DNA from: Diploschistes diacapsis
Taxonomy: Eukaryota
DNA length: 41,995 nucleotides
Assembly: GCA_023645945.1 (NCBI GenBank)
Contig: JALAIB010000043.1
Span: forward strand, 1-41,995
Reading direction: 5' to 3'
Under the pieces are notes generated by a model. The model saw nothing but the letters and a program-made list of their open reading frames with translations. It made no database searches and was not told the DNA's origin. Below, piece after piece: positions 775 through 41,896 of this stretch (positions are counted from its first letter, which is position 1; every line of letters starts with the position of its first letter). A program made the translations under genes and the position numbers.

Positions 775-3700
775 TTACACCCGCGCAGCGATGCCCGCGA
801 CTTTCAACTCGTTCCTGCCCTTCGCGACACCGCCAACGACGACATCCCTGCTCTTCCGCTTCTCCCTGAGCCTCGGCTCCTTCTCGCTGATGATCGGCGG
901 GCTCGTCGGCAGCGCCGGGCTCGGCGTGCTGCGCCTCCCGTCCTGCTTCGACGAGCGGTCGGGCGTCGCAGCTGGCGCCGGCGGAGCAGCCTTGGTCTTG
1001 CCATTCTCCCCCGTGCTGGTGGCCTTTGCTTGAGCGTCGATGACGTCCGCGAGACCCACATCCTCGGCTCCCTCACGCAGTACCGACCCACCTACGGCCG
1101 CCTCACCCCCCACCGTCGGCAGCGGCAGCCTTCCCGGCATCCCCACGCCCTTGCCCAGCACCCTCTCCATATCGCTGACCAGCACCTCCATGGGAGCAAT
1201 GTACGCCACGCCGCTCCGGTCCGAATACGCTAGCACGTGCCCGCAAACGGCGCCCGTCGCGTCGTCAAACACCCATGCCCCCGAGTCGCCTCCGCCGCCG
1301 AAAGAGCCCCTTACTTGCCAGCTATGGCTCGGCGAGATGCGGCCTGGCATCTTGACGAGGCGCATGGTGGGGAGGATGGTGCCGCGGGCGAAGAGGCCGG
1401 AAGATCGGGTGTGGGAGTGGACGCTCCGTGACGGAAGGTTGGCCGACGGGAGGATCGAGACTGGGCCGAGGGTGGAGTTCGCGGGCCAAGACCCTTTGAT
1501 CGAGCTCGAGGACGGTTCCTGCAGGCAGGGCGGAAGACGCTCGGGGTGGATCTTGATGAGCGCCCAATCGATTTCGTGGATCAGAGAGTCCTCGCCCCGG
1601 GTCCGACGGAGGCCGGAAGAGGCGTGGACGTAGCCGAGCGAGTGGGAAGAGAGGTGCTCGGAGTCGACGTCCTCCGGCGAAGGGAAGAAGCCGTCGTGCA
1701 CGTCGTCCAGGGCAGGTTGCGTGACTTGCAAACTGGACCCTCGGCCAGGAAGGATGCCGTCCGTGTCGCCCATCTCTATTTCGTCGTCGTCGTCCGAGTC
1801 AAGTGCAGTAGCGTCGAAGTCTGGAGAGAGCCAAAAGTCATTCTCCGGGTCGTCTTCGTTGGTGGCCGAGTCAAGCTCGAAGTCGTCGTCTGGAATGTCG
1901 AACGGGTAAAGGGCTCGAGTCGGTGGACTACCGGTAGCCACATCTTCGCTTGATATGGTCGAGCAAGGATAGCCGATGGACGAGGTGTCCTCCGTCTCTG
2001 GAGGTTCCGACACTTCAAACGGGTGGAGCCCACCGAATCTATCATCGAGGTCCGTCATCATATCGGAAGAAACCTTGGTGGAGTCGCGAGAGGCCATTGA
2101 GCGTTGGAGGTCGATCCTGTCTTCGAGTCCAGCTTCGATGCCCTCCCCGTCCTCCAGCATGTGGTGCACGCTCATACCAAAGGGCTCGCCGTCGACGAGG
2201 ACAGCCCCTCCGAACGTGACAGGCGGAAGGTGTGAGCCATTAAGGTAGGCCCCAATGGACGCCCCGCAGATTGGCTGCTCCTGATAAGAGGGGTTCAGGT
2301 CCTCTACCGACGGATCCAGCTCGTACATCCCATCGGCGGTCGCCTTAACCTTCTTTCCGCCCTTGCGCTTCTTCTTTCCTGCCTTGGACCGAACAATCTT
2401 CCCGGAAACGACCTTGATTTCGAAAAGCCGAAGCTCCTTGTTCAGGTGGCGAAGGATCCTCTGGCACTTTGAGGTACTCGTGCACTCCATATAAACGGTA
2501 GGCCGGGCAGTGTCCGGATCCTTCCCAGCCATGAACAGATCAATCGTGTACGATTCCATGCGGCTCAGAGCCTTACGAAGCATTCGCTCGAGCTTAGGAA
2601 ACATTGTTGTCGTCCAGTAGGTCAGATACAACGTGGGTATTTCATGGGACCAGACTCGAATCTTTGGCTGTTCTTTGGGAGCTTTGCGTACTATTTCGGT
2701 GCTGGCCAGTTGTGGGGCCACAGTTGCCGTACTTGAGCGATTGACTTTCACGTCTGCGGATGCTTCTTCGGGGGACACCACTCCGGGCCCGGCTGCACCT
2801 CGGTCTGCAGCCTCGGTGCCTGCGGGTTGTTCAGAGGTGTTCGACGGCATGCAAGGTTCACTGTCCCTATCCATCCGACAGATTCTCTCGAGAGGGCCGA
2901 CCACGAGTTCGCGGAACCTAGCGAGCTGTGCTTGCCCATCCAACGTTGGATTGTGCTCGCCGTACTGACGAATCACATCGGCTGCGGTTATACACGCAAG
3001 CACGGCGTTCATGTAGCCTTCCCCACATTTGGGAGAAAGTTTTCTCAGATAGATGTCTTGCAGCCTCGTCTTCAGGTCCCAGAGAGTGTATCTAGACTTC
3101 CAGAATTTGCCAATGGGCATCCACAGACCAATTTCCAGAAGGACCAGGCCGAGGCTGTAGTAGTCGTGTGCTAGCTCATGAGATGCCGCATGTTCGCCAC
3201 CGAGCGCTGGGTGATGGTAGAGGCCGGTGAATGGCACATCGTTACTGTGGCCGGGACCGACGCTGGCGCGCTGGTGAAAGCCAGTCAGGTAGGGTTTCCT
3301 GATGATCGATGTCTTCCATATACGTGGTTGAGTGGCCAAGGCCTGATGATGGAGAAAGAATAGCAAGTTGTTGCTGTTGATGTTCCGGTGAGCAACGTTG
3401 GTCTCGTGCAGGCGTAGGATGCTCAGGACCACGTTATGTGCGAGCTTGAACCTGTTCTCCAGGCTTGGGATGTTGTTGTTGTCTGCGTCACCTCCATGTT
3501 GTAGGAAAGAAAGCAGGCTTCTTGGTTGGAGGTTCTCCACGGCGGGGTCCGCGCCCCCTTCAGAAGGCGGGATTTCGTATATGAAGGCAGAACGAGACCG
3601 TGACGGATCCGAAGTCCAGCCAGTAAGCTTTAGAATGCCGGTGTAGGTGCTATCTCTCGGGCCGGGAAATTTCAGTAAAGCGAGCAGGAGCTCTTCGAAC

Positions 3701-4524
3701 CTGGCTCTATCTGGCTGTGCCGTTCCTTGAGCTGCTCCGGCGGGTAGCTGTCCATAGTCCAGCAGAACCGGGGTTTGTTTTGGCCGAGCAGACGTTCTGA
3801 AAGGGTCCGAGTGTGACGAAGGGGGAGTGAATAAGGCTACGGTTCTGTTCTCTGTTCCAGTCGCAACGGACTCATAGGATGGAGGCGATGCACTGAGTCT
3901 GTTATGTGCAGAACGTTGGCGGATCAAAGTTGGGTGGATATAAGCCAAATCCGTGAGGCCGTCTCTTCGAGAAGGCAGGGCAGGGCTCTTGATCTGCTCT
4001 GATGGGACCACATGCTGGGCTTGACGGCTCGAAGCAGGCGGGTTCCGTTGAGTAGACTGGGCCTGAAAGTTCTTGGGGCTGGGGGCAGTAACTTCTGGGC
4101 CTTCGACCTTGGACCGGGACAGATCGCAGAGAGTGTCGATGGAGGTGGTCAGGTCCTTCAGTATCTCTTCGAGGCGCCGTATGTTAGCGGTGGTCCAATC
4201 TTCCGAAACGTGCGCCGTAGGTCCCGGGGGTTGTAGGCTCTCGGCTTCGTCCAGAAGCTCCCTTATCGAGCACATGATGCTCGCAACTAGGTCGCTGATG
4301 CCGGCTTTGACGAGGGACTGATCAATATCGCCCGTTTGGGCCGAACGATCGCTCCATTGAATTCCCCATGCAATCAGTCGGTCCTTCTGTATCCTCAGCT
4401 TCAGATGGAGATGTGATAGTTCGGGTCCGGATTGCCGAGGTTGAACCAGAGCCTCGTAGGACTTTTTGTTGTCCGCAAACAGCTGCGTGAGCCTTCTTGG
4501 AAGAACATTGGTGCTCCGCAACAT
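775..4524 (-). CDS. HeLo (HET-s/LopB prion-inhibition) domain + protein kinase-like (pseudokinase) domain + trypsin-like serine protease (Ssy5/peptidase S64-like) fusion protein, about 1249 aa
   Basis: Uninterrupted 1249-codon ORF. HeLo-like N-terminus LHLKLRIQKDRLIAWGIQWSD. Kinase-fold motifs AHRNINSNNLLF, YHHP and DYYSLGLVLLEIGLW. Protease triad-like motifs MSVHHML (H), EIDWALI (D) and GGDSGAWV (S). The exact start is uncertain (see findings). Confidence 0.85.
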   Translation of the reverse strand: MLRSTNVLPRRLTQLFADNKKSYEALVQPRQSGPELSHLHLKLRIQKDRLIAWGIQWSDRSAQTGDIDQSLVKAGISDLVASIMCSIRELLDEAESLQPPGPTAHVSEDWTTANIRRLEEILKDLTTSIDTLCDLSRSKVEGPEVTAPSPKNFQAQSTQRNPPASSRQAQHVVPSEQIKSPALPSRRDGLTDLAYIHPTLIRQRSAHNRLSASPPSYESVATGTENRTVALFTPPSSHSDPFRTSARPKQTPVLLDYGQLPAGAAQGTAQPDRARFEELLLALLKFPGPRDSTYTGILKLTGWTSDPSRSRSAFIYEIPPSEGGADPAVENLQPRSLLSFLQHGGDADNNNIPSLENRFKLAHNVVLSILRLHETNVAHRNINSNNLLFFLHHQALATQPRIWKTSIIRKPYLTGFHQRASVGPGHSNDVPFTGLYHHPALGGEHAASHELAHDYYSLGLVLLEIGLWMPIGKFWKSRYTLWDLKTRLQDIYLRKLSPKCGEGYMNAVLACITAADVIRQYGEHNPTLDGQAQLARFRELVVGPLERICRMDRDSEPCMPSNTSEQPAGTEAADRGAAGPGVVSPEEASADVKVNRSSTATVAPQLASTEIVRKAPKEQPKIRVWSHEIPTLYLTYWTTTMFPKLERMLRKALSRMESYTIDLFMAGKDPDTARPTVYMECTSTSKCQRILRHLNKELRLFEIKVVSGKIVRSKAGKKKRKGGKKVKATADGMYELDPSVEDLNPSYQEQPICGASIGAYLNGSHLPPVTFGGAVLVDGEPFGMSVHHMLEDGEGIEAGLEDRIDLQRSMASRDSTKVSSDMMTDLDDRFGGLHPFEVSEPPETEDTSSIGYPCSTISSEDVATGSPPTRALYPFDIPDDDFELDSATNEDDPENDFWLSPDFDATALDSDDDDEIEMGDTDGILPGRGSSLQVTQPALDDVHDGFFPSPEDVDSEHLSSHSLGYVHASSGLRRTRGEDSLIHEIDWALIKIHPERLPPCLQEPSSSSIKGSWPANSTLGPVSILPSANLPSRSVHSHTRSSGLFARGTILPTMRLVKMPGRISPSHSWQVRGSFGGGGDSGAWVFDDATGAVCGHVLAYSDRSGVAYIAPMEVLVSDMERVLGKGVGMPGRLPLPTVGGEAAVGGSVLREGAEDVGLADVIDAQAKATSTGENGKTKAAPPAPAATPDRSSKQDGRRSTPSPALPTSPPIISEKEPRLREKRKSRDVVVGGVAKGRNELKVAGIAARV

Positions 4525-4939
4525 GGTTGCAGCTGACCCTCGAGTTCTGCCAATGTATCATGCAGAAGGGGACGACGAGCACTCATTCACAGTCCCAGCG
4601 ACAAGACACACGAGAGGTTACTGTCGTCTTCAGTCTCCAGAAGTGCTGCAAACATGCTGTTGCCTAAATTGACGAATCAGGGGCCGAGTCCGGAACTACG
4701 GACGAACCATTCGCGCGGGACGGGGTTTCTGGTGCTTGGGGTTATGGTTTGCAAAGGAAAAGGAAAAGGAAAAGAATATCGAAAACAATGCGAAAGCAGA
4801 TGGGAATGGGGGAAATTTCAATAGCAATAGCGATATCGCTGTGGTCTTTGCTTGCACAACAACAACACAATAAATAGGATAATTGTTGCCTGGAGCGGGT
4901 GGCAAACTCCGTGCTAACCGAGTTCTTGGCGCCAAGCCC

Positions 4940-4956
4940 CACACACACACACACAC
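4940..4956. repeat. (CA)n microsatellite
   Basis: cacacacacacacacac followed by a CT-rich tract. Confidence 0.85.
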
Positions 4957-7540
4957 TTTCTCTCTTCATGCTATAAATCAACTTGTTCTTCTTCTTCTTC
5001 ATCTATATTGACTACCTAGTATGCCCATGGAGTGTTGAACTTCTCTAGGCATCCCAACCTTTGAGCCATGTCACGGCCTGCTTTCAGCAACTGCCCAGTT
5101 TCTCTTCATATGCTGCTGAAGTCCATCCCTTGAATACTGCTTGCTGCCTCACGGTTTGAAAGCGCACCACGTGACGCTGCAACACGAACCAGCTCATTAA
5201 TCATTCTGTGTGCCAGTCATGCTGAGAGTACTGGTCTTACGATGAGCGAGCGCAAGGGAGATTGAGTGGATGGTGCTACAGTGCGCCGGGACGGTTTCTG
5301 AGCACAGCTAAACCATTGAACCAAGTTCCACTCAACCGCAATTGAACCATTTCGTAGAGCCGTCCGGACACAAGGAGAATTTCGCATGCCAAACAGCCAA
5401 CATCGTGCCACGACCATCTAAATTGAAGGCAAGGGAATGCCTTGGCCGCTTGTGTTTAAATCATTCGTGCACCGGCTCTGAAACAAGCAAAGGGCAATGT
5501 AAGGAAGCAGATAGCATGTGCTGAACCCTTCGCCCTTCTTTGTACTTGAATTGCACGATGTATCACGTCTGATGCGGGGAAACAGGACATGTGTGTATGC
5601 TGTGGTAACAACATTGAACGGTGTGATGCGACGCCCGCGAACCCGGTACGCAAGCTTGACAAATTCCTGGAATTGCCGGTATCGTCGACGATCCCCAGCA
5701 ATGGTGGTTCGTGGTATCGCGCAAGGCCCAGCAGGGCGCAAACAATAGCGCAGAAACGAGATACCTCAAGCACGGGATCCCTGCTGCAGATCTCCGCATC
5801 GGATATTGCTTGTGCACATAGTGGGCGGCTATATGCATGCAGCTCGAGAAGATATTGATTGCTCGGCCAACTTCGTATCCGTCAGCAGCTACAGACAGGA
5901 CTTTCGCGCCGGGAAGGTCGAGCTTATATTGCGTACATGGTGGCAATTGAAGAGCGTGCAGCCTCCATCTTATAGGGTATAAGCCTTTGCTAATTGGTTG
6001 GCATAATCGAAGCCAAATCGACTGTGGAAGAGAAAGACCCGCACCGCCGCTGGCCACAGTCACAATCTCAAACTCGCGGCGCCCATCCGAAATGCACGTG
6101 CTTGGGCGGTAACAAGTTCTTAGGAGAAAGACTTACACTTCGTGCCTCCAAGGAAACAATCGGCGACCTGTGCTCGGGTCCCGTGGTTGGCTCCGTACAA
6201 TCCCTTGCCGTGGGATCCCAGCTGGACCGCAAGCTTCCCAGAGGCCAGGTTTGAGAGACCTGTCAAAGTAGATCCCATGCAAACCATCACGTCAGCCTGC
6301 GGAAGGGCCCCTTGGCAGATCCATCCAGGGTTGCACAGTGTGTACGGTGTGCGTCGGCCATCAGCCAGACGATACGGTCGGGAGAGACATTGGCACTCTG
6401 TGGTCTAATGAGTTACGTGAACTGCGTCAACGGTCGCTTGCGCTCGGATCTGCAGAAACGTGCAAGTGAGAGGCCGCACATGGCCGAGGTGCAGAGCAAG
6501 CAGCGTATAGGCGACCCTGTGGTTGGAAAGCGGCCGGCTTGCATGGTTTTCTTTCTCGTCGTGGTTCAATCTTTGCATAACGCTAATAGTGGCTTGTCTG
6601 GCAATAGTAGCACGAGCATTAAAGGGGAGAGGTTTTGGGGATCGTAGGACGTCCGAGATTTCGAGGATGAAAATGTATCTGTCCTGTATTGTGAGGTGGG
6701 CGCGAGTCATGTAAGTGGTGCAGAGCCTGGTGGTCGTGCCTGCAGGAGACGTTGTTTGCTAGGCGGTTCGTAGATTGCCAGGCAAGATAAATACAGCCTC
6801 TCAACCTGAATCTCTTCCACGGCCATTTCCAGGCACTCGGGTTCCAAGTCGGCCTTTACCATGACCGAACGAATCCGACAAAGAAGGCGAACGAGATAGC
6901 AACAGATAAGTAGAGAGCAACGGGGACCTCGAGAGTATGATATCGTGACTGCACGCTTCACCGCATAATTGGATACAAAAAAAAGTCAGACAAAGAGTCT
7001 GGCTATCGGGCGCGGAATTGGGGCACGGCCGCGCTGTGATAAGTACGATTCTGCCAGTATTGAACTAAACTGATATATTCTTGTAATGAGAAGGCCTTTG
7101 GATGTTGCGTACTGAGGATGCAGGCACCGTAGACTGACAAAGAATTCCCCAATTCCGACATTCAATCTCGGGAACTGTCTGGCCCGCCTCATCCAGACAT
7201 TGTGGTTGCAATTGATTCAGTAGGGCCGAGGACATCTGAAAAAGGCAATACCATACGACTTTTATCCTGCCGCATGTACTTCCGTATGCAGCAACAAGTT
7301 ATTCGGGTAGGAGACTAGAGAATTACAACTTAATAGAATAATGAAAACTCGTAAGGTGGGCGGTTCCGCGCGAGGCTTCCAGTATCCTCGGAGCAATTGA
7401 ATTTTCAAAATAGCCCAACTCGCTTTTTTTTATGCACCAAGCAGGCCTCGTAAAAGATTTGGCTGCATTTATCGTCGTCGACATGAGTGGCGTGGTTCTT
7501 GCCAGCCAGCAGAAGTCTTGTGACTTCGGCAAAGTGGACT

Positions 7541-9552: not shown

Positions 9553-11683
9553 GCATCCACCACCGGCCACACTAGTGGCTCTACCAGGACCCAACTACTC
9601 CCAGTACCACTTCAAACTTGTTGTTCCCCTAGCACCCTGTCCAATCTTCACCACTACCTCCCACTCCTACCAGATCATCAAGTGCTAAGCACAGTCTACT
9701 AGCCAATTTAATAATATCGCCAGGCACGCGCACAAACCACCACAAGTCCCGGCGAAGTACAGCATTGTCCGGATTTGGCCCCTGGTGTTGTTGTGCCTCG
9801 ACCATCCCCTCGTGGCAATCCGATACAGCTTGCCATCGCCCCAAAATCTCTGTGGTGGGTGTGCCTTTTGCATCTGGGAATTCGGTAATTGGGCACTAGA
9901 AGCTTAGAACAACTAGATCTGTTTATGGATTTTAGACATCTATTTCCGTCAGCTCAAGATGCAACACCGGCCTCACCTCCCTCCGCTTCCACTTTTTTCT
10001 CCTACAAGTCTCTGGCGTCATGACATTGGCTCCGAATTTAGTGTCTCAATTCCTCATGCCTTGAGCCGAGGTAGCGTCCTTTTCCTATTTTTCTTATCTC
10101 TTTCTTTCCCCTGGTAACCTTCTGCCTCGTCGGTGAAAAGCTGGCTTGGTCTGTGAACTTTATAGGAGACTGCCTTCCACTGGACGACGGTACGACGGTA
10201 ATTCTCAGCATTTGTCTCTGACGTGACTTGGTAGAGGGCTGCAGGCTACTGCACAAGTCTCCTCCCGCTACTTGCAGGTAGATAGACATCGCATCCTTGA
10301 CTGACATTCCCGCTGCCCTGGTCACACTTTCTGGTAGATCCTTGCAGGGAAGCCTACTCCAGGTTTTTTTCCAAGCCCCCTACACCCTGGCTTTCTGACT
10401 GGCTGCTCCAAATATACGGTCCGATATCCAGAACCGGCTCCTCTGAATCTTAGCATCCAAACTTGGTCTCCTCCTTCAACCCGGCTCTTTCCTTGCCCTC
10501 CCTCCGTACCGGTATCCCTCCCACGCGTCACTCGCAGCAAAGACCCTTGGCCATTTGACAACAAACTGACATCCGCCACAGCAGAGGCAAAGCCCGACTC
10601 TCATCGCCGAAGTCAGCTTAATTGGGCCCCCGTCGGACGGAACACTAATCTGCTTTCATCACCTGCTTCCTCCTTTCGGGAAACCACTGGCGGACGCATG
10701 GCTGATGGAAGGACTCGCTACTGTCGACCATGTCTCAATCTTGCGAGCCCCAGCTGTGACGGCAGATCCTGAGTAACGAGGGAAACTGCCGCGAACCGGC
10801 TCAGCCACTGAAACAACTAACAGCCTCTTGTCTGATACATCACGCCAGCTCAGATCTTTGAACCAAGTGCTAGGGGCCTCGGCGCGCTAGGGCGAAGCGA
10901 GCAGCTGTCAAAGACTAGACTTCCTCAACTTGCGGCTTGTCAGTCTGTTCATTCCAGAAGGACCCATGTCCCTGTTGTTGCGGGATTGCGCCTTCCCCCT
11001 CTGTCTCGGTTTCTTTGGAGAACCACTTGCCGTATTCAGAGCGCCTACTCCATCATCGACCTTGTGCCGTATGACAAACCCGCTTTGCCTGAAGAACCGA
11101 TTGCGTGGTAGATATCGTCAACGAACAAAAAAAAATATAACCTCGACTTCCTTCCCAACTTTCTCCCGTTACGACATCCCACCGGACGCAATCCATTCTT
11201 GAAGCAACGGATCCTCCCATCTTTCTACTCTCCTTTAGTACTCGTGATATCGGAACATCGTGCTACTGTTTTTGGTTCGTCTAATCAAGCAACAGTTCCC
11301 CTGCAAGTGATCGTCGTCCATTCGATATCTTGCAGATCAACTACTATTGCTCCCAGCCTGTTGGTTCCGTCTCAAAGGTCCAACGGTCACAATATCGGAT
11401 TACAATACAGCTGTGCCAGGGCTTTGCCACCCCTTGTTATAATAGTACATATCTCTTAATCAGGAGCAGCGAGACTGCTTTGCCATCCTTTCGTTCAAGC
11501 ATTTTCCTTTTCTCTCCAAACCAATTCGGCTAGTCCGATCCAGTATCGTTTCCCCTGTACCAAGGGCAGATACTCCGGCCTCTCTACCGGGGGAACGTTG
11601 TCTTGGAGGCTTAAGCGAACGCATGTTAGCAGTTTTGATCCGGTAATTGGAGCCAAAGGGCTTGAGTCTACGCGTGGGGAAAC

Positions 11684-12734
11684 ATGCCTTCGGCTTCATC
11701 TTCTTCTTCTTCATCACGGCGAGCCCAGAAAGAGGTGCTGCCGCCGCTAAGTGTGGTATGTCATCCTCGACGAGTGCTAATCTATCAAGCTCACGGTTTC
11801 GAAAGGTCCTCCCGGAGATGCATACTACCAGACCAGATCCAGACGGGACATATCCTCGAACCCTAGACGACTCCCCGCTTGGTCCAACTTCCAGAGCAGG
11901 AGCCAGTGGTCTGGCGCCATCGCCCAGAGGCTCGGGCAGCAGCAGGAGTCGTGCGCAGTATGCAAACCATCTCTCGCACCGTAGTGACTCGTCCATCTCA
12001 TCTAATCTCTCCGAAAGGCCCAGCAGCTTCGCAGGCTCCTCGAGCAGCCACGCCTCTACAAATCGAAGCAGCCCAGCAATACCCCCAGCCCGAACGTCGG
12101 CGCAACTGCCCGAGCGACCTCTGGAGCGCCGGAACCTGCCCCCCATCAACACACACGGCGAGGCGTCGAGGCCCACGGATCCTCGATACGCGGGTTCCCC
12201 CACCTCGGCCAGGTACCCGGCCCAACCTGGCCCTGGGATGCCCGTACAAGGTTACGGGAGCCAATATCCTGGCGCACCGTCCTACTCCGGTCCCAGCGCA
12301 TCCGCTGGTTACTCTCTGAATTTTGACAACCTGAGCGACTACGGTGATGGCAACAAGAAACGGAGACGAGGCAACCTTCCGAAGCATGTGACCGACATCC
12401 TCCGCAGTTGGTTCCAAGATCATATCGCCCACCCGTATCCGACCGAGGATGAGAAAGTCGGTTTGATGCAAATGACCGGGCTGAGCATGAGTCAGGTATG
12501 TCTTGTGGGGAAAAGGGCAGCAAACTACTTCGTCGCCTAGGCTCTTTGCGATTGCTGATATGATCTGCCCCTTGTATTTCCCGGTCATGGTAGCTGACAA
12601 GCATGTAGATAAGCAACTGGTTCATCAATGCCCGGAGACGCAGTTTGCCGCAAATACAGCGGCAGGCGCAGGCGGAGCAGGAGCTACGGGAAAATCAGGG
12701 CAAAATGATGCAAAGGGGGCATGGGGGCTCGTGA
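11684..12734 (+). CDS. TALE/KN-class homeobox transcription factor (Cup9/Tos8/TGIF-like); exons 11684-11755, 11806-12495, 12609-12734
   Basis: Splicing rebuilds KKRRRGNLPKHVTDILRSWFQDHIAHPYPTEDEK...LSMSQ|ISNWFINARRR, with the TALE HPYP loop and the WFINARRR recognition helix. Introns are GTATGT..AAG (50 nt) and GTATGT..GCTGAC..TAG (113 nt). N-terminal LPPLSVVLPE motif. Confidence 0.92.
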
Positions 12735-18565: not shown

Positions 18566-21500
18566 TCATAGCTCATCCTTTACTCTTGCAGTCGCAGACC
18601 CAACCATGCTGCTCACGCTGCTTGCCATCTCCTCCATGCCAAATTGCGCTGCCTTGATGTTGTCTGCTGCGCCTCCACTCGCTTGTTCAGCCATTTCCGC
18701 CAGCTTATCTCGAGCATTCTCTACTAGATCTGAGAGCCGAGCGCTGGCGCTTTCTACTGCACTCTGTTGTTCACCGTAAATAGCTGAGCTAACCTTGGCG
18801 CCAAGGCTGGACGCCGAAGCGCTAACATGAGATGAGGCAGCCGAGAGGTTTTCGCTCGCGGCTAGGGTGGCGGAATCATAAGCTTCAGCTGCTGCACTGG
18901 CTACAGACCCTGTAGTGCCCTGACTGGTTCCATAAATCGCCTCAGAGATTGCGCTTTGAGCAGAGGCGGCAGCGTTCTGGATGGAGCTTTGTGCAGCCTC
19001 TATATAACTGGGCTGTGTGCCGTAAACAGCCTCGGAAATCTTCGATTGTGCAGATTGGTAACTTGCGGCTGCCGTCGAGGTGGCCTCTGCCCAAGAACCT
19101 TTGGATGAGCCGTATAACTGCAGGCTAGCAGCTTCCATTGCAGAGTTTACTTGCTCGCTTGCACTATCAATAATTGCCTCTAGTGTAGCGGGTGGAGTGA
19201 AAACGGAGCTAACGATTGAAGACGCGGAGGCATAAGCTTCGTTGGCATAGGTCGAGGCTGAAGAAGCCATTTGTACTGCACCGGTATAGTATGCTGAACT
19301 CAACCTGTTCATAACGCTCTCTGTGAAGTCGGGCTCTTTCCCAGCCACGAGTTCTGAAATCAGTATCTGAACGGCGGAGAATTGAGCTGCAGCCGAGTCA
19401 GTTGCCTGTGCTGCAAAAGCACTGGCTTGAGAATAAATAGACTCGGCGAAGGGTGTAGGTTGCCCGTACACTTGCTCGCTTGCCCTAGAAACTAAAGCAT
19501 CCCAGTTCTGTGATGCCGCAGCCGAGATTTGGGAAGCTGCCGATTCCGACCAAGGAGTCTCAGAAGGAACGATGCAAGCTCCGGATTTCGAAACCTTGGA
19601 AGCGATGGATTCTACAGGCCCAGTGTAAGTCCCATAAAAAGCTGTACTTGCAGCGTGGGATGCCGACTCAAGCGTAACGGATGCGATGGAGAGGGCAGCA
19701 CTGTATTGTGATGATACAGAGTCCAGAATACTTTGAGCGGGTGATTTGCTAGTTATGCCTGCGACAGAGCTGGCAGACACGAGCGCAGCTTGAAAAACTT
19801 GAGAGGCCTGCTTCGCAGCGTCACTGTATTGACTTTGAGCAGTATCCAAAAGGCCGTGATAGGCCGGACCAGGGGTGCCAAGAATGGCTTCAGAAGCTTG
19901 ATTGTAGAGGCTCTGATAAACTGGTGTAGGTGCTCCATACACAGCTTGCGATGCGGCGGTTACAAATTCAGAATACCTATCATGAGCTAGTCCAATGCCC
20001 TCGTAGTATCGTCTCTTAGCTTCAATCAGATATTGCTCGTGGGTGGCGGTAGGCGTCGCCCCAAGGGCCGTACGAGCACTTTCATATTGGGCGGAAGCAG
20101 CTCGAATCCCTTCAGACAAACGCGAAGATGCCACAGCAGAGATTGACTCTAGTGCGCCTTGTGTTGGTCCAGCAACGTAACTGTTGAGCGCATCTGTTGC
20201 AAAGGCGTGCTGTGAACTTGCCATGCTTATCAAACTCGAATATCGCGCGGAAGCCTCGGATATGAGTGATTCATGAATGGGGGTGGATGTTGCTCCAACA
20301 GCAGTTTTGGCAGCATTCAGCTGTGCCAATGCCACATCACGCGCCGCGGAGTATTTCGCATTCGCAGCGGCAATCATTGACTGCTGCATACTTGGCGGAG
20401 ATCCCCATACTGCAGAAGATGCTGAAGTTAGCGCAGAGTCTAGACGCTTGCTTGCAGCGGCCATGGAATCACTGTATGCGGATTCAAATGAGGATAGAAG
20501 TTTCTGATGAGCAGGATCAGGTGTTTCAGATATCCGGATGGAGGCAATGGACAGAGCATGGTCGTATTGTTCTCGCACAGTTTTTGTGGCTTCTGCATAC
20601 TGTGCTTTAGCCTGTGAGATGACAGACTCGTGAACAGGCAGTGGAGTGCCGTAAAGCACCGATGAAGCTCTGTTGCAGAATGTTAGGAAATATCAAGACA
20701 AGAGAGTGAACAAACTTACGCAGAAACGGCATCAGAGTATCGATCCGATGCAACCCTTGATAACTTCTCAGCCGCGCCAGGCTCAGGACCGTAGAGCGCT
20801 TGAGAAGCTGCTGCCAAAGCGCTTGAATACTTCTCACCTGCCAATGAGGTCACGCTCTCCACAGCATCTTGAGCGCTGGCTTGCCTTGCTATAGCCTCGT
20901 TCATAGCCTTTGTGAGATCAGCCAGCTTGTCGCTTGCGTTTTCTGCGAACCCATGCAGTTGACCTGAGTAGGAGTTATCATCTTTCAACTCTTCTTCAAA
21001 GATGGGTATCTGTTGTGCCACGTCCTGGGCCATGGCACCGGCAAATATATTGCTAGATGCCGCTGTGGCTATCGATTCCGCACTCGAGCTTGCTTCAGAG
21101 GCCACCCCGAAGGCTTTGCTTAGCATGTTGTCAGATTCAGGAGGTGGAGCGCCGAGAATGACATTTCCGGCCTCCTGGACTACATCGTCCAAAAGACTCT
21201 TCGCTGTTGGCGTGAAGCTCTGGAGCGGTGCCTCTGATGTCCCGATTACACCTTCACTCGCTATAGATACTGCCGAGGCTGCAGACGAGGCCAAACCCTC
21301 GGTATTGATATCTGGCAAGTCAATCAGAGCCTCCGACACTTCTCCAACGATCTTAGTGGCTTTCTCGCTGCCGGCAGAGAGAATGCTTTCATGTAGTGCC
21401 TGCTGAGTTCCTATTACGGCTTGTGAGACCCCAGTGGAAGCTTTCTCAACAACACCGGGCTCTGCGCCGACAATGACCGATGAGGCAGAAGACACAGCGT

Positions 21501-23437
21501 TAGCGGCGCCTTCGGTAGCTTGGACAACATTTTCCCCCACAGCTGACGCGGCGTCGTTGGCGCTCTTTGCAGCAGCCTCTCTGAATGCACTGGCGCTTCG
21601 CTCCGCCAGCTTCGATGCAAGAACAACCTTAGCCGGTGTATTCCGTGTCGAAAAATTGTCCGACGCATCTTGTGCGTATACTTTCCATAGGGCTACCTCC
21701 TTCAATCGCGAAAGTTCCTTGGCGGCGTCCTCAGCAATAGAGATCCCCTTGGATTCCAACTCTTCTGCTGCGCTCGTACTCTTTTGGAGGCCCTCATGGC
21801 TAGTTGCAACGGCCCCGACTTCGTTGCGCCATTCGTCAAAGGCTTTTTTGAGCTTGTGATATTCGGCCCAATCTTTGTAGGTGACGCCATCCATCCAAGC
21901 CCATCGCATGCCGATTTCCTGCAATCCTAGGTCGCGGATGTTATCCAGGACGTCAAGGGTTGAAACAGAAGCTGCATTAACTAAAGACTGAGTTTCTTTG
22001 TCAAAGCCCTGCTTCCAGGATCTGAGCGATTGAGCTTTGAATTTGATGGCTACAGCTGCATTTCGAACAGCTTCGGAAACTTGACCCTCAGCCTTCTCGA
22101 AATCTTCTTTTGAAGGGTCGGCCGGAAGAGATTGCACAATGTTGTTGATAGATCCTTTCAAATTCGTTGTCTCTGAAGCTGTAGCTTGCTCAAGCTGGAT
22201 GATCAAGGCTTTCCCGACGCCGTTAACTTGACTCTCTACCTGGCGATTCGTGATATCTTGGACACGCTCCCTGAGATCTTCAGCGCCTTTATCAGCAGCT
22301 TTGAGAAACTTTTCCTGCCAGGTGAGCAGGTCTTTAGAAATTTTTTCTCTATCCTCAGCATCCTTCTTTAGGTCGTTTGGGAAAGATTGAGAAGGATTGG
22401 CTTCTCCCACACTATGTGGTTGCGAGATACCTGGAGTGGCATCCACAGGCTCAATAATTTCAGAGGAAGATATTTCGAAGGACTCGGTACTAACACTATT
22501 CTGTTAATAGTCCACATGGACTACAGGGTTTCGAAACTTACTTATCCACCTCATCAATAGCCGCTTTCAACTTCTGGCTGTCCCGATAGCGACCAAGCCT
22601 CTCGCTTATTCTCAGAAGCTGCGGCTCGACGTTTTCGCCGTATAAAATACGCATTTGTGGCCATAAAGTTCGATTGAGGAACTCAATCGAAGTTAAACAT
22701 GCCCATTTAGCGTACGGATACCCCGTCTCAAAGACGGCTTTATTGACAACACCGTAGGCCTTTGCAGCATACGGGCGAGAGGCGGTATAGGCCGGAAGTA
22801 CACGATCGTTATAAGCTTGGACAACATTGGTTTTTCCAGCGCTGTAATATGGTGCAGCAGCCGAGCTAACTCTATCGACGTGAGGTGCGATAGCAGCTGA
22901 ATATTGGGCGTTGACCTGCGCCTGAGCATTACGAATATGAGGCTTTACCTTCTGCTCCCAGTGATCGTGGCTATAAAGGCGTGCTTGATCAACTCGTGGC
23001 GCCAGATATTCTGTATAACCTTTTTTACCAAGTTCGACAGCCGGTGTCAGGACTTCCGTACCTAGCCTGCCTACATATGGTCGCGCTGCGTCTGTATAAG
23101 GTGAGACATACTGATCGTAGTAGGGACTGATATAGGGTGAGGCGTAGGATCGAAGCGTCAGATAAGGTTTGCAGATAGGAGATGACTGATCCGAGAGCTC
23201 TGCTGGTGATGAAGGGCACTGGAAAAGAGCGACGAAGATAGTATACCAGAATAGTAGTCTAGCCAAGTCAGTTATCTCTCCAGGCTTTGAGTAACTTGGT
23301 TACCTTGCAAATATACTGATAGTTTTTGTGCTGGAGGGCTCCGGTTTTAGCTGCTGCTGAGTAGAAGGAGAAGAAATTGTTCCTTTAGGCCGAGTTTTAT
23401 TGTGCTCTACCGCTCGGCCGTTAGGGTGAAGACCCAT
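18566..23437 (-). CDS. Large She10-like ER protein (family often mis-annotated 'transcription factor hoxa13'), 1576 aa; exons 23437-23304, 23258-22542, 22495-20720, 20669-18566
   Basis: Three GT-AG introns (45, 46 and 50 nt) join four ORFs in frame (4731 nt). N-terminal TM/signal anchor ARLLFWYTIFVALFQCP. Conserved LGLQEIGMRWAWMDGVTYKDWAEYH block. Ala/Ser-rich helical repeats. C-terminal KDEL. Confidence 0.85.
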
Positions 23438-24357
23438 TTGAGCAATCTGCAGCACTGCTGGCCTGCTGGTCCGGTCTAGATCAAGCTTCACACTTTGAGC
23501 TTCCAAACGGACTTTGGCTGCTTAAATCGCGTTGTTGTAGTGCTTCCACTGCGTCACCGCGTTGACCGAGATGAAGTTTCCTCCTTTTTTTAAGTCAGCA
23601 TCAATGACCGAATGTCATGATTCCGGTGACGGTGATTGCTCCGACAAAAAGGCAAGATCTTATCGGAACGAGTGAGATGTACGGGAGGTAATATCTAGGA
23701 GGAGGTCAGCCAGGTCTGAGGAAGTGAATTTCTTATGATAGGAGGGAGCCGCTAAGGGCGCTAGGATGCGATGCCGTCACTCTTTGCCAAGTACAGTACT
23801 GGACAATAGTAGACTACTAGGTAGGTATCTTCAACAATTCTTAATAGTTGAGTATCGCCTTTTCACCTTGTCACGCGCTGCTGCTGCTGGATTGACCCTC
23901 GCTCCTACAGTATGCTGCAGCAACAAAAGCCACCCACGGAGATAACTTGAAGGTTCCTTTACAATGGAATAGTAAGCAAACTTGAAGCTATTTGGTTTGC
24001 GTGCCAGGACCACATTTGTACGGGTATTACTATCCAGAACTCAAGCAAAAACCCTCAAATACCCTCTATCTCTTTTAATTATAGGTTGCATCCGGGGAGA
24101 TGATTTGTCTCTACTGAAGGGGATGGACTGTTTCCTAAAAACTTTCCACAGGTGGTTATCAGAAGCTCAGTAGGCTGTCGAAGTTACCAGCACAGGTCGC
24201 TCGATTCAGTCGACCCTGAAGATACTGATTTATTTGACCTCTGACTCGGCAATATTTCAACGCACACGAACTGCCCTGGACCCCCTAGCTCTTGCTCTTC
24301 TATTTATCTTCACGCCAGAAGCCTTACTACGCAGTCGACAATCAGACACTGGCTGCC

Positions 24358-27300
24358 ATGATGGATACGATGAATGATCCGTCGATTGATGCAAAGAGAA
24401 GGAATAACGAGAAGGCTATTAACGAAGGGGATACCTGCCGGATATGTCGAGGCGAAGGCTCTCAAGAAGAACCTTTGTTCTACCCTTGTAAATGCAGTGG
24501 TAGCATCAAATATGTGCATCAAGCTTGTCTCATGGAATGGCTCTCGCACTCCCAAAAGAAGCACTGCGAGTTGTGCAAGACGCCCTTCAGATTCACTAAA
24601 CTATACGATCCGCATATGCCGAATTCGGTTCCGCTGAGGGTGTTTTTCAAACAAGCTTCGCTACACGTCGTACACAGTCTGATGACCTGGGCGAGATGGA
24701 ATCTCGTGATTTTTGTCTGGCTTGGATGGGTTCCCTGGTGCATGCGAACGATTTGGCGGGGGCTCTTTTGGATTGGGGACGGTGCTTGGATCAGTCGTCA
24801 GGAAATTGAGAAGCATACACGTCGCATTGAAAGCCTTGCTGCAACAGTAGAAGCACAAACGAAAAACAACGCAACCTCTTTCCTAGCTAATGCTACCTCA
24901 AGTACTTCCGCCACCATCGCTGGGATCTTGCCAAAATGGGGACCAATATCACAAACATTGAACTCGTCAGTAAGGGAACCTGCTATTGTGTGGCTATCGA
25001 GACGAATGCTCAGCGGCTTCGTCTTTCCATACAACGCTTTGATTCAATCTCAGAACACGGTGGGAAACAGTACATCCACAAATCTCCCTCTAAGGAGCCC
25101 CTCTGTTCTTTCGGACGTCAAGTTTCTAACGAAGCTTACCCGATGGAGAACCTTGAACAGTATTGTCATTGATATTCTCGAGGGCCAGTTGATTACACTA
25201 AGCATTGTCGTTGCCTTTATCCTAGTGTTTTTGATTAGAGAGTGGGTCGTTCAGCAGCAACCGATTGTGAACTTCGTCGCCGCCGCCGAAGACGCCAGAG
25301 CACTTGAAGACCCTGCGAGAATTGTAAATAGGTTAGAGGGTCCCATTCTTCCCCAAGATGATAGGGATGTTCCTGAAGGAGAAGAAGAAGTAGTAGAAGA
25401 AGTGGTAAGGGAAGAAGAAAAAGAAGAAGCGGAATTTGGCATACAACTGCCGAAGCCTAATGCCGATACTTTATCTTTGGATTATAACCAACATGGAATA
25501 GCTACCGCTGTCGAAGCGACAAGTCATGTTAGTTCCACAGAGGACGAATTGCCTAATGAAGGAGCAGCGTCGGGTTCAGTCGGACAAAGACAACTTAGGC
25601 GGATGCCGGCAACAGATTTCTCACTCGCACGGTCTGTTGATTCGGAAGAAGCTGGGAACACGCTTGATCAGGATGGCTTGGACTCAGCGTCTCGCAGCCA
25701 AGAAACCGACTCTGATTCGGAAGCGCGACTCTCGAGACCGAGTATGCCCGCCAAAGATACCGCCGCGCAAGCGACGGATATTCAAAGGACGTTGGAAGAA
25801 GAATCTGGGGCTTCTGGGAAATCTTGGCCTGGTGTCGATGTGTTTATGGATCTTTGGAATCGTGCAGACGGCGACCCTGACCAAGTTCTGCGCATAATCG
25901 AGCAGGAAGGCCAGGTTGAACAATTTGGATGGATAGTTTCCGCCATGAAAAGGCTTCAGAAGTCGCGCGCCCAAAAATCTCGTGGAGGATCCAAGACTGA
26001 TGGTCAAAACGATACTCAGGGACCATCTCTGGAGACAACCCTGGACGAACAAGGGAGTCAAGAAAGCAACGAGAGTTGGCAAGTAGTGGATGATCTGGAC
26101 AACCGGTGTGACTCCTCTACGCTATTACGTAAAGAACTAGAGCCGCATCTCCCAGGGTCATCCGGATTCAGCGACGAGAGCACACGTGCAATTCCATGGG
26201 CAGGCAGCTCGCCTGGTGAATCAAGCAGTACACCTGCTCAATCAGCAGAGGCGGCCCAAAATAACATCGAACCTTCTAGTCAATCTCGTGGGCCTTCATC
26301 TGTAGACATCCCTCAGCTACCCTATAATGAACGTAATGAGGGGGAAATGCAGGCGAATGAGGCTCCGACGTTCCGCGCGGTTATTCGGGATTGGCTCTGG
26401 GGTGGGATTCCCCCTACTAATGCGATTGCTGAAGAGCCCGAAGTAGACGAAGAACATGTAGTAGAGAACATCGCAGAAGAAGCACCGTTTGTACCAGCCG
26501 CTGAAGGGCAGCCAATTGTTGCCGCTGGCGACAACGCAGACCTTGTCAATCGACCAATGGATCCGGAAATAATCAGGGCTGCTAATGAAGCGGGAATCAA
26601 CCCTAATGATGTGGAGGCGATCGAGGAAGGGGAGGATCTCGAAGGTGTCATGGAACTCATTGGTGTGCAAGGCCCTATAGGAGGTCTCGTACAGAATGGC
26701 ATTTTCAGCACGGTCCTTATCTCGATGACTGTCCTCCTTGGAATATGGGTGCCTTACATATTTGGCAAGCTGATACTGGTATTCGTGGCAAACCCGACGG
26801 CTTTGCTTATCAAGATGCCATTACGATGGATGTCAACGACAGCTGATATGATTGTGGACTCCTTCATCTTCCTTTTCGGCTGTGCATTCTATTGGCTTGA
26901 TCGTTTGGTACGCTGCACAGCTACTCCCTTGAGTTGGGCGTTCCCTTTCATCCGTGTTGTGCAGCAGGATGATTTGATCCCCATTACTGCACATCGGTTC
27001 ACCTGGAATGCCGCAGAAAGGTTGGCAAGAAACTTCTTTCAAACAAGCGACCAATTCTCGGACTTGGACATTCCCATATTCTCTATCGTAGCCCATGAGT
27101 CGCTACAACAGATAGAGAACTCAACATCCAATGTTATCGACACTGTGTTTGCAGGTATTAGATCTATCGCCGAGTCGTCCTCTCCTGGGTTTCACATCCT
27201 TAATCTCATCTGGCACAGTGCCTGTCTGATTATTCTGAAACTATTGAGATTGCCGCAGCAGGTATCCTATACTAGCACAGAGTTACTCCGAACAGCACCT

Positions 27301-29397
27301 CTTCTACTTCAATCGAACCCATTGAAGATCAACCTTGATGTCCCTGCTCGAACGGAGCCCTTAGACTACGATTTGGCCGCTTGGGGTACACGGGATCGCA
27401 TTTTCACCATATTCGTCGGTTATGGGTTCTTCTCAATTATTGGAGTGCTTTATCTGAAAGCTCGTCGCCTCGTTAAGGATTTCCATCAAGAAGCAGAATT
27501 GGGTGACGGAGCTGTGATTGACGGGCTTAATCAAGCTGCCGGAGTGCTCAAAGTCATTCTGATAATCACGATTGAAATGATCATCTTTCCACTCTACTGC
27601 GGCATGTTGCTGGATATCGCCCTCCTTCCTCTTTTTGAGGATACTACTATAGTATCGAGACTTCTCTTCACAGCAAAATCTCCAGCAACTTCCCTATTCG
27701 TACACTGGTTTGTTGGTACATGCTACATGTTTCATTTCGCCCTGTTTGTGTCGATGTGTAGGAAAATAATGCGGAGCGGAGTTTTGTGTAAGTTTCTGAC
27801 AAGCCACCCCTGGTTTGACTAATTTTACATAGACTTCATCCGAGACCCCGACGATCCTTCGTTCCACCCAGTTCGTGACGTACTAGAGAGGAATGTTTCA
27901 ACTCAGCTGCGGAAAATACTATTCAGTGCCCTGGTCTACGGTGGTCTAGTTATCATCTGCCTTGGTGCAGTTGTCTGGGGCTTATCGTCGATCCTGCGTG
28001 GAGTTTTCCCCATATACTGGTCATCGAACGAGCCAGTTCTCGAGTTTCCTGTGGATCTATTGGTATATAACTTCCTCATGCCAGTGGCCATTAGATTCTT
28101 TAGACCATCAACCGGCCTTCAAGATATGTACAAATGGTGGTTCCGTAAATGCGCACGAGCTCTGCGATTAACAAACTTTCTCTTTGGTGAAAAGAAAGAC
28201 GATGAAGAGGGTTACTACACTCAGACCGTCATGAAAGCAGAAGAGACCCTCCAGCATCAAGGTGCCGATACAGAACCTCAGCAGAGAAACCGAATGTTCG
28301 TCCGTGATGGACGCTTGGTCCGTGTACCTGCTTCCGACTCGGTTCGGATACCGAAAGGCAACAAGACGTTTGTAGAGATCGACCAAGAGGGAAATCGATT
28401 GGACGGACTCCCGGACAACCATCACGGCCTCCACGGGCGAGAGAACCGGATGTTCTCGTCGGTTTACATCCCTCCAAACTTTCGTCTCCGCATAGCCGGC
28501 TTCATTCTGTTGCTCTGGCTCTTCGCTGCAACGACTGGTCTGAGCCTAACAATCTTGCCTCTAGTTTTTGGTCGATTCGTTTTTGCTCACCTTGTACCGT
28601 CACATCCCCGGGTGAACGACATTTACGCCTTCGCCATAGGCATGCACCTACTTGGTGGCCCGCTTTATCTTATCGTTCATTACCGCAATCGGCTCTCTTC
28701 TCCTTTGGAACGGCAACCGGCGGTTAGGAACGTCCGCGTTGACGCCATCAAATCTTCGCTCCGTAGAGTTCTGTCCGGTGGGCTTCGTCTTCTTCGAGTA
28801 TTGTATTTCTACGGAGCTTTCACAATACTTCTGCCTTCTTTGTTTGCATGTGTATATGAAGCCTACCTGCTCGTGCCGTTGCACACCTATTTCTCAAGGG
28901 ATCAAATACCGCCTACTCCCTACACTGTGCATTTCATTTCTGACTGGACTCTCGGCGTTTTGTACGTACGAGTTGGGATTCGACTTATTCTTCAATTCCA
29001 GGGATCTCGACCGAGTCGAGCATTGCGAGCACTGGTTTCTCAGCCAAACAATGGTGCTTCATGGCTGGATCCTGATATTCGGCTGGCAACCCGTGCATTC
29101 ATCTTGCCTCTCACAATTCTTCACGTTCTAGCTTTAGTGGTTCCGCTTGGCCTCGGCTGGGCGATGAACGCAACCTGGTTTTATGGCGCAGCGGGATCAT
29201 CGCAGACGGTGGTCTATCGGTACGCATACCCGGCTGTGTTATTCTTCGTTCTAGCATATGCTTTGGGTAGAATTCTACGGCGCGCTTTGGGTAGGTGGAG
29301 GTCCAAGGTTAAGGACGAGGTCTACTTGATTGGGGAGAGGTTACACAATTTTGGCGAAAAAAGGCCTAGGGTTAACAGGCTTACCACGCAGGTCTGA
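24358..29397 (+). CDS. SSM4: RING-CH (RINGv) membrane E3 ubiquitin ligase Doa10/Ssm4 (MARCH6 family), about 1664 aa; exons 24358-27787, 27833-29397
   Basis: CRICRGEGSQEEPLFYPCKCSGSIKYVHQACLMEWLSHSQKKHCELC (C4HC3 RINGv). Many TM segments. A 45-nt intron (GTAAGT..ACTAAT..TAG) restores the conserved GVLYFIRDPDDP. C-terminal KDEVYLIGERLHNF motif. Confidence 0.95.
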
Positions 29398-35080: not shown

Positions 35081-35728
35081 ATGTCGTATCATTTCTGTAT
35101 AGTGGGCACAAAGGACAACCCGCTTTTTGAGCTGGAATTTGGGACTTCTAAGCAAGGTGGGGATGGGGTCGCTAGGTTTTCTACGGAAGCAAGGCAATTG
35201 AATCCATTCATTGTGCATGCAAGCTTAGATATTGTGGAAGAAGTGCAATGGCTAAACACTCAGATGTGGGAAGAATCTTGATGCTAATTGTTCATTTCCT
35301 GCTGACGAACACCAAGGTATCTTAAAAGAGTGGACCATTTCGCCTCTTCCCACATCTCCTGCTTCCTTACGCCAACCAACGTCAAATTCCTCTTGCTGCA
35401 CCTGCCACATCCTCCCAATACGCCACCGCCGACTCAAAGTACAGCAAAGAACCCATATCTGTTTTCCCCGTACGCGCCATATACGACGGGTGCGCCCTCT
35501 TCATCACTGCTTGCTCGGGCTTCAGCATCAACAGGAACAGGGACTGCCGCAACAATACCCACAAACCCCACGAGTCCACAAACGGAAGAAGCTCTTCGGT
35601 TGTTCTTTATCGAAGTGTATGAGGTTTGGGTGAAAGCGGTCATGAACCCATTCCAAGGCATAAATAAGGCCTTGTTGAGTCCAGTATTCAGAACCAGAGT
35701 ACTAAGTGCGGCTAAAAAGTTCCTCTAA
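35081..35728 (+). CDS. TRS20: TRAPP complex subunit Trs20 (sedlin), 198 aa; exons 35081-35265, 35317-35728
   Basis: MSYHFCIVGTKDNPLFELEF, FIVHASLDIVEEVQW, MYLKRVDHF after splicing, and FFIEVYEVWVKAVMNPF are sedlin signatures. Confidence 0.93.
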
Positions 35729-36916: not shown

Positions 36917-37284
36917 GCGCCACAAGGTGGCGGAAACTTTTTAAAGTACATGCTATATGCGCCACATCCGCCTTGCCCTGGGCTCAAACACGCTTCTCCA
37001 TTGGATCTCCTGACCTCCAGGCACTTCCACATCCATCAATCAACTATAATCTACATACTATGCAGCACTATTCATTCCATTGTCCGAGTCCTGAAGAGAG
37101 CCACCAAAGAACTTTTGAACCCAAAGTAAGGAAAAAGAAACTTCCTCTGCTAACATGGTACTCAGAGCCTGGAAAACCCACAAACCCCTCAGACCCTACT
37201 AGCAAAACTTCTAAGACCCAACTGTCAAAGCCGAAACTCGATTGACGCTATTGCTAAAGTGCTTATTAAGGCTGGTACTAAGAC

Positions 37285-38224
37285 TTAGGTCGGCTGAGTC
37301 CTCAAACCTCGCTGCTGAAGATTCTCCAGGAGAGCAGCCTCTTCCTCGCCTAAAATTGAGTTGCATTAGAAAAAGGAATAAAAACTGCCAGCTGCACTTA
37401 CCTGGAGACAAGTCCTCCGCTTCACTATTCACATGGATTACCCGACTCAAAGTACTTTGCAGGTTCATCGCTCCGGTTGAAGCACTGCTGTCCGTAACTT
37501 CCATCTTCATGAGAGAAACTCGAAGCCGGTAGTTACCAGGATCTTGGATACGGAGGTTAGGAAATGATAGAAACCCAACCTCTTCTTCGTCAGATTCAGA
37601 ATCGCTGTCTAGCGTGTGAACCGAGTCGCTGAGATTGCCAGCAATCAAGTCATCTCTAGGTGGTGCAAGAGAGGTGGATCCATCTTCGGAAGTGATTGAA
37701 ATAAACGCGAAAAGGAGAGATGGGTCTGTGACGCTCTCGTCTTCGGCTTCCGTTTTGTCCAAGCGCACAACAATAGGAGGGTTCAGTATTCGCCCGGGTC
37801 GAACCTGCTGCGGAGGCTCTATAATAACGTGCATTTTGAAGCGCCTTCGATTCTCGCCGTTGAGTCCAGATAATGCCGGTACCTGATTATCTTCTTGTTC
37901 CTCCCCAGATGTTCTCCTAAACAAATCAGCATCTTCTTGATCATTCGAAAGTGGAATGACTTACGCTTGATACTGAAATTGGCCTAGGGATGAGGCTGGA
38001 TCTTGGAAGGCTTGCGTCGATGCTACTGTCTGTCCGAAGGTGTTGATGATTCCTTGAGGACCACTTCTTTCAGCGGCAATTCCTTCAAGCAATCTGGCTG
38101 ATCGACGTAGACTTAATTGCACGGCTCTCTCAAGCTCTCGAGTTCTTCGAGCTCGGCCAATGATCGATCTGGAGGCTTCCGAGGAGGCAGTATTTGATGA
38201 ACCTCTTTGTGGCCGACGGCGCAT
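37285..38224 (-). CDS. Velvet-domain-containing protein (divergent), 279 aa; exons 38224-37965, 37916-37402, 37349-37285
   Basis: Velvet-fold motifs IEPPQQVRPGRILNPPIVVRL, DLIAGNLSDSVH and GFLSFPNLRIQDPGNYRLRVSLMKM. Two GTAAGT..TAG introns (48 and 52 nt) give an 840-nt CDS. Confidence 0.8.
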
Positions 38225-41526: not shown

Positions 41527-41896
41527 TGTTTGGTGGAGAGTCGGTTCGGGTGAGGGAAACTATTGGGAGCTGTCGAGGAGTGAAAACGGCGTAGAAGCTG
41601 CTGCTCTTTTTGCAATGGATCGTACTTTGGTAGTTGCAAACTCACAGGCAGATCGCGGTTACTTTCCTGAACCAGAGATCGGGGACAGCTTTTGGAGATC
41701 TGGTTCGGCTGTAAGAGCTTCAGAAGCGCTTAACTCCGCTGAACCATTCCCCAATGAACAACATTTAGCTGCTGTAAACGTGCGATCTGTCTTCGTACAG
41801 AGGACAACTACTTTTAAAAAACATCCACGACCTTCAAATGCCAGCAGTGGTCCCAAAATCCCTCCAGACCGACTGTCCCTCAAACGTCGCCTCAGA

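Follow-up and report, generated by a model that had tools for sequence, protein, structure and literature searches.

What is encoded by a single gene that joins a HeLo-type helical bundle, a kinase fold and a trypsin-fold protease, and is it a self-contained cell-death module? The question is raised by an unbroken open reading frame (ORF) of 1249 amino acids on the minus strand at 775-4524 of contig JALAIB010000043.1 from Diploschistes diacapsis, a stretch of 41,995 nucleotides (hereafter the window; it is the whole of contig C3668 in genome G000 of our numbering). A reading of this DNA from its letters alone (the sequence-only reading) had noticed the combination and interpreted it as an MLKL-like death effector. 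The combination of domains is real, and the unbroken ORF, the Pfam matches, the structure model and the motifs all agree with it. We assign the gene, with a probability of roughly 0.93, as the orthologue of Aspergillus nidulans SltB (AN6132), the cytoplasmic zymogen of the Slt cation/alkaline-pH pathway. SltB itself has already been characterised, and the locus is no newly found cell-death switch; the find is an ordinary one, a lichen-fungus-like version of a regulator that is known from earlier work and occurs across Pezizomycotina.

The assignment is carried by the whole length of the protein. With SltB as query (P0394 in our sequence set, named 'protein sltB', AN6132), genome G000 returned seven matches, of which the top three all belong to the window gene and together span SltB residues 11-1185; the other four cover single domains. 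The two proteins are collinear in two alignments, one of 931 columns at 32% identity (E 6e-113) and one of 302 columns at 40% (E 5e-44), and the protease part as query finds a single match in G000, itself. Identical residues occupy the positions of SltB S1142, D1036, G1156, E743, W722, Y568 and Y478, while F1126 and N544 differ. The SltB sequence given in the supplement of PMC4557415 likewise matches the window protein block by block when compared by eye. The nearest named relative, at 70% identity, comes from the lichen fungus Thelotrema lepadinum. Homologous sequences amounted to 487 of 8000 scored candidates, and all parts of the protein are present in 113 of 118 diverse homologues. The single intron of sltB precedes the catalytic Ser by four codons; of 49 distinct loci, 4 have a GT-AG intron at this place and 45, including the window gene, have none, a count biased toward intron-less genes because the scan used a pattern contiguous across the intron site.

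Several points weigh against this assignment. Identity to SltB is just 32-40%, the orthology is based on best match, copy number and collinearity, and the experimental support comes from A. nidulans alone. Deletion of F1126 is reported to kill SltB activity, and this position is Pro in the window protein (Phe in 49 of the 118 homologue rows). The candidate for SltA, the transcription factor on which SltB acts, was recognised through the names that its relatives carry rather than through an alignment with the A. nidulans protein, and the six AGGCA sites of this promoter taken alone are weak (P 0.067 against shuffles).

SltB-type proteins start with a HeLo-type bundle, an addition to what the SltB papers PMC4557415 and PMC4985261 describe: the word 'HeLo' is absent from the main text of both and of PMC11011638, and an earlier mention elsewhere is possible. 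Aspergillus homologues bear names such as 'HET-s/LopB domain protein' in databases, which indicates that automatic annotation already includes the HeLo match. LopB of Leptosphaeria, which is reported to have a signal peptide and whose sequence was not obtained, was dropped as a possible identity. The Pfam profile PF14479 (HeLo) matches residues 12-98 (window 4231-4491) at E 3e-7, with 30.9 bits against a cut-off of 23.2, and is matched at E<=0.1 by all 28 aligned homologues; SltB itself matches at E 1e-4, slightly under the cut-off. An AlphaFold model of residues 1-1135, built from 28 sequences (mean predicted local distance difference test, pLDDT, 60), forms four long helices at residues 8-27, 34-61, 76-96 and 112-136 with moderate confidence. 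Profile and model confirm the HeLo-like domain that had been placed at about 4480-4120, and in the ESM Atlas the closest named clusters are HeLo, with a score of just 0.88. Sequence searches of solved structures gave no match with residues 1-140 or with the HeLo domain of a paralogue, and three weak matches with the full protein, none of them a HeLo or protease relative. Profile searches of solved structures gave only kinases among the 60 matches listed, with no HeLo or protease relative, and fold searches with the 1135-residue model gave only kinases among the matches listed.

HeLo effectors of the HET-S type are reported to insert an N-terminal transmembrane helix into the membrane (PMC7885112). 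A hydrophobic helix of this kind was not found in any of the 115 homologues scored by 19-residue hydropathy (118 rows, 3 too short to score; a HET-S positive control was absent from the scan). The best value before the second helix is -0.28 here and no higher than 0.82 in all 115, and column composition shows conserved R, D and K in helix 1. The first helix of MLKL is amphipathic; for this reason, and for want of the HET-S control, the hydropathy result speaks more strongly against a mechanism of the HET-S type than against one like that of MLKL.

The kinase-fold domain in the middle of the ORF, taken for a pseudokinase from the letters alone, is supported by fold as well as by motif counts. 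In the model, residues 187-554 match kinases as well as pseudokinases with Z up to 18.1 and a root-mean-square deviation of 3.6 A over 253 residues, and a DUF7580 match (Pfam, residues 329-540, E 7.9e-5) stays below the cut-off. HRN at 379-381 replaces HRD, and DFG, the beta3 Lys and the Gly loop are missing. None of the 118 homologues has DFG, a Gly loop or a Lys at 252-257 (beta3), and HxD occurs in 24. Judged by these motifs, the kinase domain is dead.

The sequence-only reading knew of no mechanism for such an architecture; for SltB one has been published. A. nidulans SltB is reported to be cut near residue 692, mainly intramolecularly, into a pseudokinase and a protease half, and to cleave and activate SltA for cation/alkali tolerance; S1142A blocks both SltB cleavage and SltA processing, and the protease half alone is inactive (PMC4985261). 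Because of the orthology to SltB, we assume that the same events would take place in the window organism. The trypsin-fold protease (predicted H788/D986/S1081) would first make a cut in cis within the linker that follows the pseudokinase. The HeLo-pseudokinase half would act as a large pro-domain or scaffold and would still be needed for activity. The primed enzyme would then cleave the zinc-finger factor SltA/Ace1 and free its DNA-binding C-terminal part, and processed SltA would act through AGGCA sites to drive sltB itself as well as the genes for cation/alkali tolerance. The first, third and fourth of these steps are reported from A. nidulans, as is the requirement for the N-terminal half (PMC4985261); the scaffold role of the HeLo bundle is what we infer for the second. 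SltB M692, with the cleavage nearby, maps to about residue 609 here, and autocleavage would be expected in or just after the variable linker at 551-620. The suggestion that the protease cleaves in cis and separates off the N-terminal part has thus held up through the orthologue SltB (PMC4985261). Behind the linker, the model forms an alpha/beta domain at 621-707 that is common to two stand-alone protease paralogues of G000. A Lys/Arg-rich stretch follows directly after this domain (residues 712-727, window 2344-2391, minus strand); SltB also has a basic run, and the stretch might pair with the acidic insert of the protease.

Does this cleavage release a killer? As a dedicated, self-contained death effector, the protein would use its protease to free a membrane-disrupting HeLo domain. 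The layout of HeLo plus pseudokinase is indeed like that of MLKL, HeLo-like domains have been reported as homologous to the four-helix bundle of MLKL (PMC7885112), and cleavage in cis does free that half. However, SltB cleavage is reported to be constitutive and to occur in healthy hyphae, so that the freed fragment is always present, and processed SltA fully bypasses the sltB deletion for salt tolerance (PMC4985261). Full-length SltB and both fragments are described as cytoplasmic, with green fluorescent protein (GFP) at either end and SltB-GFP without relation to membranes, and expression of the N-terminal fragments 1-477 and 1-590 gave a null phenotype (PMC4985261). The words 'toxic' and 'cell death' are absent from the main text of that paper. 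The function of SltB in activating SltA, the polar helix 1 and the lack of a hydrophobic N-terminal helix throughout the homologues scored point in the same direction, as does the single copy of the gene in G000. MLKL is not the closest kinase fold either (rank 33, Z 16.0, against 18.1 for TYK2), and no NLR family was found among the 10 and 48 neighbouring ORFs scanned, with just 774 bases downstream to the contig end and short exons outside the scan. The published SltB work largely refutes a dedicated death effector, which we regard as highly improbable. In SltB a domain of cell-death type has a role in stress signalling, and the layout of HeLo plus pseudokinase is therefore insufficient ground for classing a fungal protein among the death effectors.

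A second job of SltB has also to be considered, in which the released HeLo-pseudokinase fragment would act, independently of SltA, on the plasma membrane or on endomembranes in the manner of MLKL, an action normally buffered by ESCRT. In animals, ESCRT-III counters MLKL damage. Such a domesticated MLKL-like module would explain why ESCRT-null hyphae are rescued when the Slt pathway is lost, and also the rescue of ESCRT-null mutants by sltB alleles with normal SltA processing: sltB57, in which N544 of the pseudokinase is deleted, is reported to suppress the vps32 deletion while SltA and SltB are processed normally, and its authors allow further functions. N544 is poorly conserved, however (Asn in 12 of 118), and weak sltA alleles are reported to suppress vps deletions as well. 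In favour of such a job, SltB is reported to be undetectable without SltA (PMC4985261), so that suppressors in sltA may reduce SltB too. With a tag at its N-terminus SltB is still cleaved but does not function (PMC4985261), and the HeLo match extends across the family, SltB included. The Podospora homologue Pa_7_4390, which the HeLo-family start of SltB links to this regulator, appears in PMC3689799 as a HeLo protein with a 2.58-fold induction in incompatibility. On the other hand, hydropathy before the second helix is low in every homologue scored and helix 1 carries conserved charges, GFP at either end of SltB is cytoplasmic, and sltB56, expected to yield a 1-477 fragment with the whole HeLo bundle, is reported to be a suppressor itself. 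We consider such an additional membrane function very unlikely, and retain the zymogen of the Slt pathway as our reading of the gene product.

The His, Asp and Ser motifs of the protease were correctly located from the letters alone. SVHHM corresponds to residues 785-789 (window 2158-2172, with the two His codons at 2161-2166), the Asp to D986 (1567-1569) and the Ser to S1081 (1282-1284), the latter two being equivalent to SltB D1036 and S1142. H787 and H788 are conserved in all 118 diverse homologues; among the rows that have a residue at the position, D986 is kept in all 116 and S1081 in all 96. The S1081 column is empty in 22 of the 118 rows, and many predicted homologues end at the intron just before the Ser motif. 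About a third of the first 120 homologues seemed to have lost this motif, which we dismiss as an artefact of gene calling at the conserved intron. The proposed likeness to Ssy5 is supported by the trypsin order of His, Asp and Ser and by the conserved motifs. Of the Pfam families named along with it, HeLo came out above the cut-off and Peptidase_S64 just weakly, in 3 of 28 homologues with a best E of 0.013; the Atlas S64 cluster scores 0.94, with the family on 10% of its members. The C-terminal part of the model is beta-rich, with fair confidence for the strands before H788 and a pLDDT under 50 at 788-871.

Which His is catalytic is unsettled in the SltB papers. The 2015 paper proposed H925 or H939 (PMC4557415), and the 2016 paper, from a model of residues 900-1192, H1008 or H1033 (PMC4985261). 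Relative to P0394 the Asp numbers of PMC4557415 seem shifted by one: its D1037 is D1036, and its Asp 1049 is Ala. The pattern of conservation favours H788 (SltB H874) as the most likely catalytic His, separated from the Asp by 198 residues with an acidic insert (29% D/E over 793-930) in between: its motif is kept, H983 is replaced in some homologues, and the two protease paralogues of G000 have D or Y at 787 and retain a His at the second position alone. Conservation is lacking at SltB H925. When the set is widened to 120 homologues, H788 is kept in 119, and no Ser motif is seen in the one protein that has a replacement. The [ST]-x-x-H pattern also fits the TAAH motif of trypsin. H787 would be a competitor, being invariant in all 120, as would H957 and H983 near the Asp, which correspond to the pair proposed in 2016 (SltB H1008 and H1033): H957 is kept in 118 of 120 homologues, and the low-confidence region of the model begins at H788 itself. 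H1033A is reported to reduce SltB processing, but only in part and with normal SltA processing (PMC4985261), and 9 of 120 homologues have another residue at H983, with the Ser motif retained in all or nearly all of these 9. Moreover, H873 and H874 could not appear in the 2016 model, as it covered 900-1192 only. We therefore judge H787, H957 or H983 as the catalytic His to be unlikely. 'H874' and 'His-874' are absent from the main text of PMC4985261, and an earlier mention elsewhere is possible. The choice of H874 implies that a His-to-Asp span of about 130-280 residues, which includes the acidic insert, interrupts the first barrel of the protease (132-278 in 119 homologues; 162 in SltB). As a specific prediction it should be useful to the small Slt field, as should the HeLo-type start of SltB.

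The pathway around the protease appears to be present as well. Genomes having sltB are reported also to have sltA (PMC4557415), and in G000 a gene of the SltA/Ace1 type lies on contig C2879 (L068, L070); one of its relatives, with 73% identity, is named 'zinc finger transcription factor ace1'. The gene (L070:385-3029, minus strand) encodes a three-finger transcription factor with an intron inside the first finger, and its product is the likely substrate of the window protease. A zinc-finger search at E<=0.001 (17 matches) missed it, and it was found at a looser threshold in 40 regions around 109 matches. Several SltA relatives carry the name 'copper-binding transcription factor', presumably through a mix-up with yeast Ace1. 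Upstream of the window gene AGGCA occurs at 4661, 4887, 5047, 5145, 5427 and 5438, six times within one kilobase (P 0.02-0.07 for this gene alone). From 78 metagenome loci, 42 of which include the gene start and at least 1 kilobase upstream, 18 non-redundant ones were compared: their upstream kilobases contain 75 AGGCA against 41 +/- 6 in 200 shuffles (maximum 56), and the enrichment ranks first of 512 pentamers. At 15 of the 18 loci, 59 sites lie in the near kilobase against 31 at 2-3 kilobases upstream. This enrichment across homologous loci suggests that the feedback loop from SltA to sltB is conserved in the family.

Table 1. Parts of the sltB orthologue and its upstream region, in window coordinates.
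Feature	Position	Strand	Basis
sltB orthologue (probable), single-exon ORF, 1249 amino acids	775..4524	-	ORF, alignment, genome search
HeLo-type helical bundle, residues 8-137; polar helix 1, no transmembrane-like segment	4114..4503	-	Pfam, model, hydropathy, column composition
Pseudokinase domain, residues 187-554	2863..3966	-	structure match, DUF7580, motif counts
Linker, residues 551-620; low conservation and low confidence	2665..2874	-	conservation 0.16, pLDDT<50
Conserved alpha/beta domain, residues 621-712, taken as the SltB-CR region	2389..2664	-	PMC4557415, model, conservation
Trypsin-fold protease part 1, residues 744-792, with SVHH and the predicted catalytic His H788 (2161-2163); conservation 0.74, the highest block	2149..2295	-	
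Acidic variable insert between His and Asp, residues 793-915	1780..2148	-	
Protease part 2, residues 916-1130, with D986 and S1081	1135..1779	-	
C-terminal tail, residues 1131-1249, low-complexity, conservation 0.10	778..1134	-	
Upstream kilobase with six AGGCA sites, candidate SltA binding sites	4525..5524		

Other genes of G000 resemble single parts of the window protein. L002:1-1359 (minus strand, C331) is PskA-like, with a HeLo match at E 1e-28 followed by DUF7580 and a profile match to the window pseudokinase (probability 93.7), and L026:727-2283 (C1824) encodes a PskA-like pseudokinase protein. L028:163-2535 (C1990) and L029:1-2205 (C890) are S64-like proteases that share the SltB middle domain and the split His...Asp-Ser protease; both matched SltB in the protease part only. 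Elsewhere in the window we observed a gene with a Homeobox KN (TALE-type) domain at 11647-12537 (plus strand, E 9e-11) and a Doa10/MARCHF6-type RING-variant E3 ligase at 24292-29397 (plus strand; RINGv, DUF7889, MARCHF6_C). Three long consecutive open frames of 708, 595 and 253 amino acids, stop to stop, at 18566-23299 (minus strand) are probably exons of one large gene and gave no Pfam match at E<=0.001. Mitochondrial ribosomal protein L31 (34305-34625, minus strand), Sedlin, a TRAPP subunit (35306-35725, plus strand), a Velvet-domain protein (37214-37960, minus strand) and DUF1242 (41170-41559, minus strand) follow.

Among known systems, SltB is like the window protein in its whole-length collinearity, pseudokinase, middle region, Ssy5-like protease and catalytic Ser and Asp, and also in having an SltA-type partner gene in the genome and AGGCA sites upstream. 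The window gene differs in the lack of an intron before the Ser motif, in Pro at F1126 and in a longer acidic insert (198 against 162 residues from His to Asp). Ssy5 of Saccharomyces cerevisiae (MEROPS S64) is likewise an intracellular zymogen of chymotrypsin type, with a large pro-domain, self-cleavage and activation of a transcription factor. The window family differs from it in the weak Pfam S64 match, in a pro-domain made of HeLo and pseudokinase, and, for the window protein, in a His-to-Asp spacing of 198 against 80 (H465, D545), and no evidence of true homology between the Slt and Ssy5 pathways is reported in PMC4557415.

MLKL, HET-S, HELLP and HELLF share the N-terminal HeLo-type bundle, which in MLKL is also followed by a pseudokinase. 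By contrast, the SltB type has no hydrophobic N-terminal helix and no adjacent NLR among the ORFs scanned, its constitutive cleavage is without reported harm, and it is a conserved single-copy gene with a fused protease. HeLo-pseudokinases without a protease are found in fungi (PskA-like; 'HeLo + Pkc-like' in Podospora), as are stand-alone S64-like proteases. SltB joins both units in one chain, which suggests that it may have arisen by fusion of a HeLo-pseudokinase and an S64-like protease.

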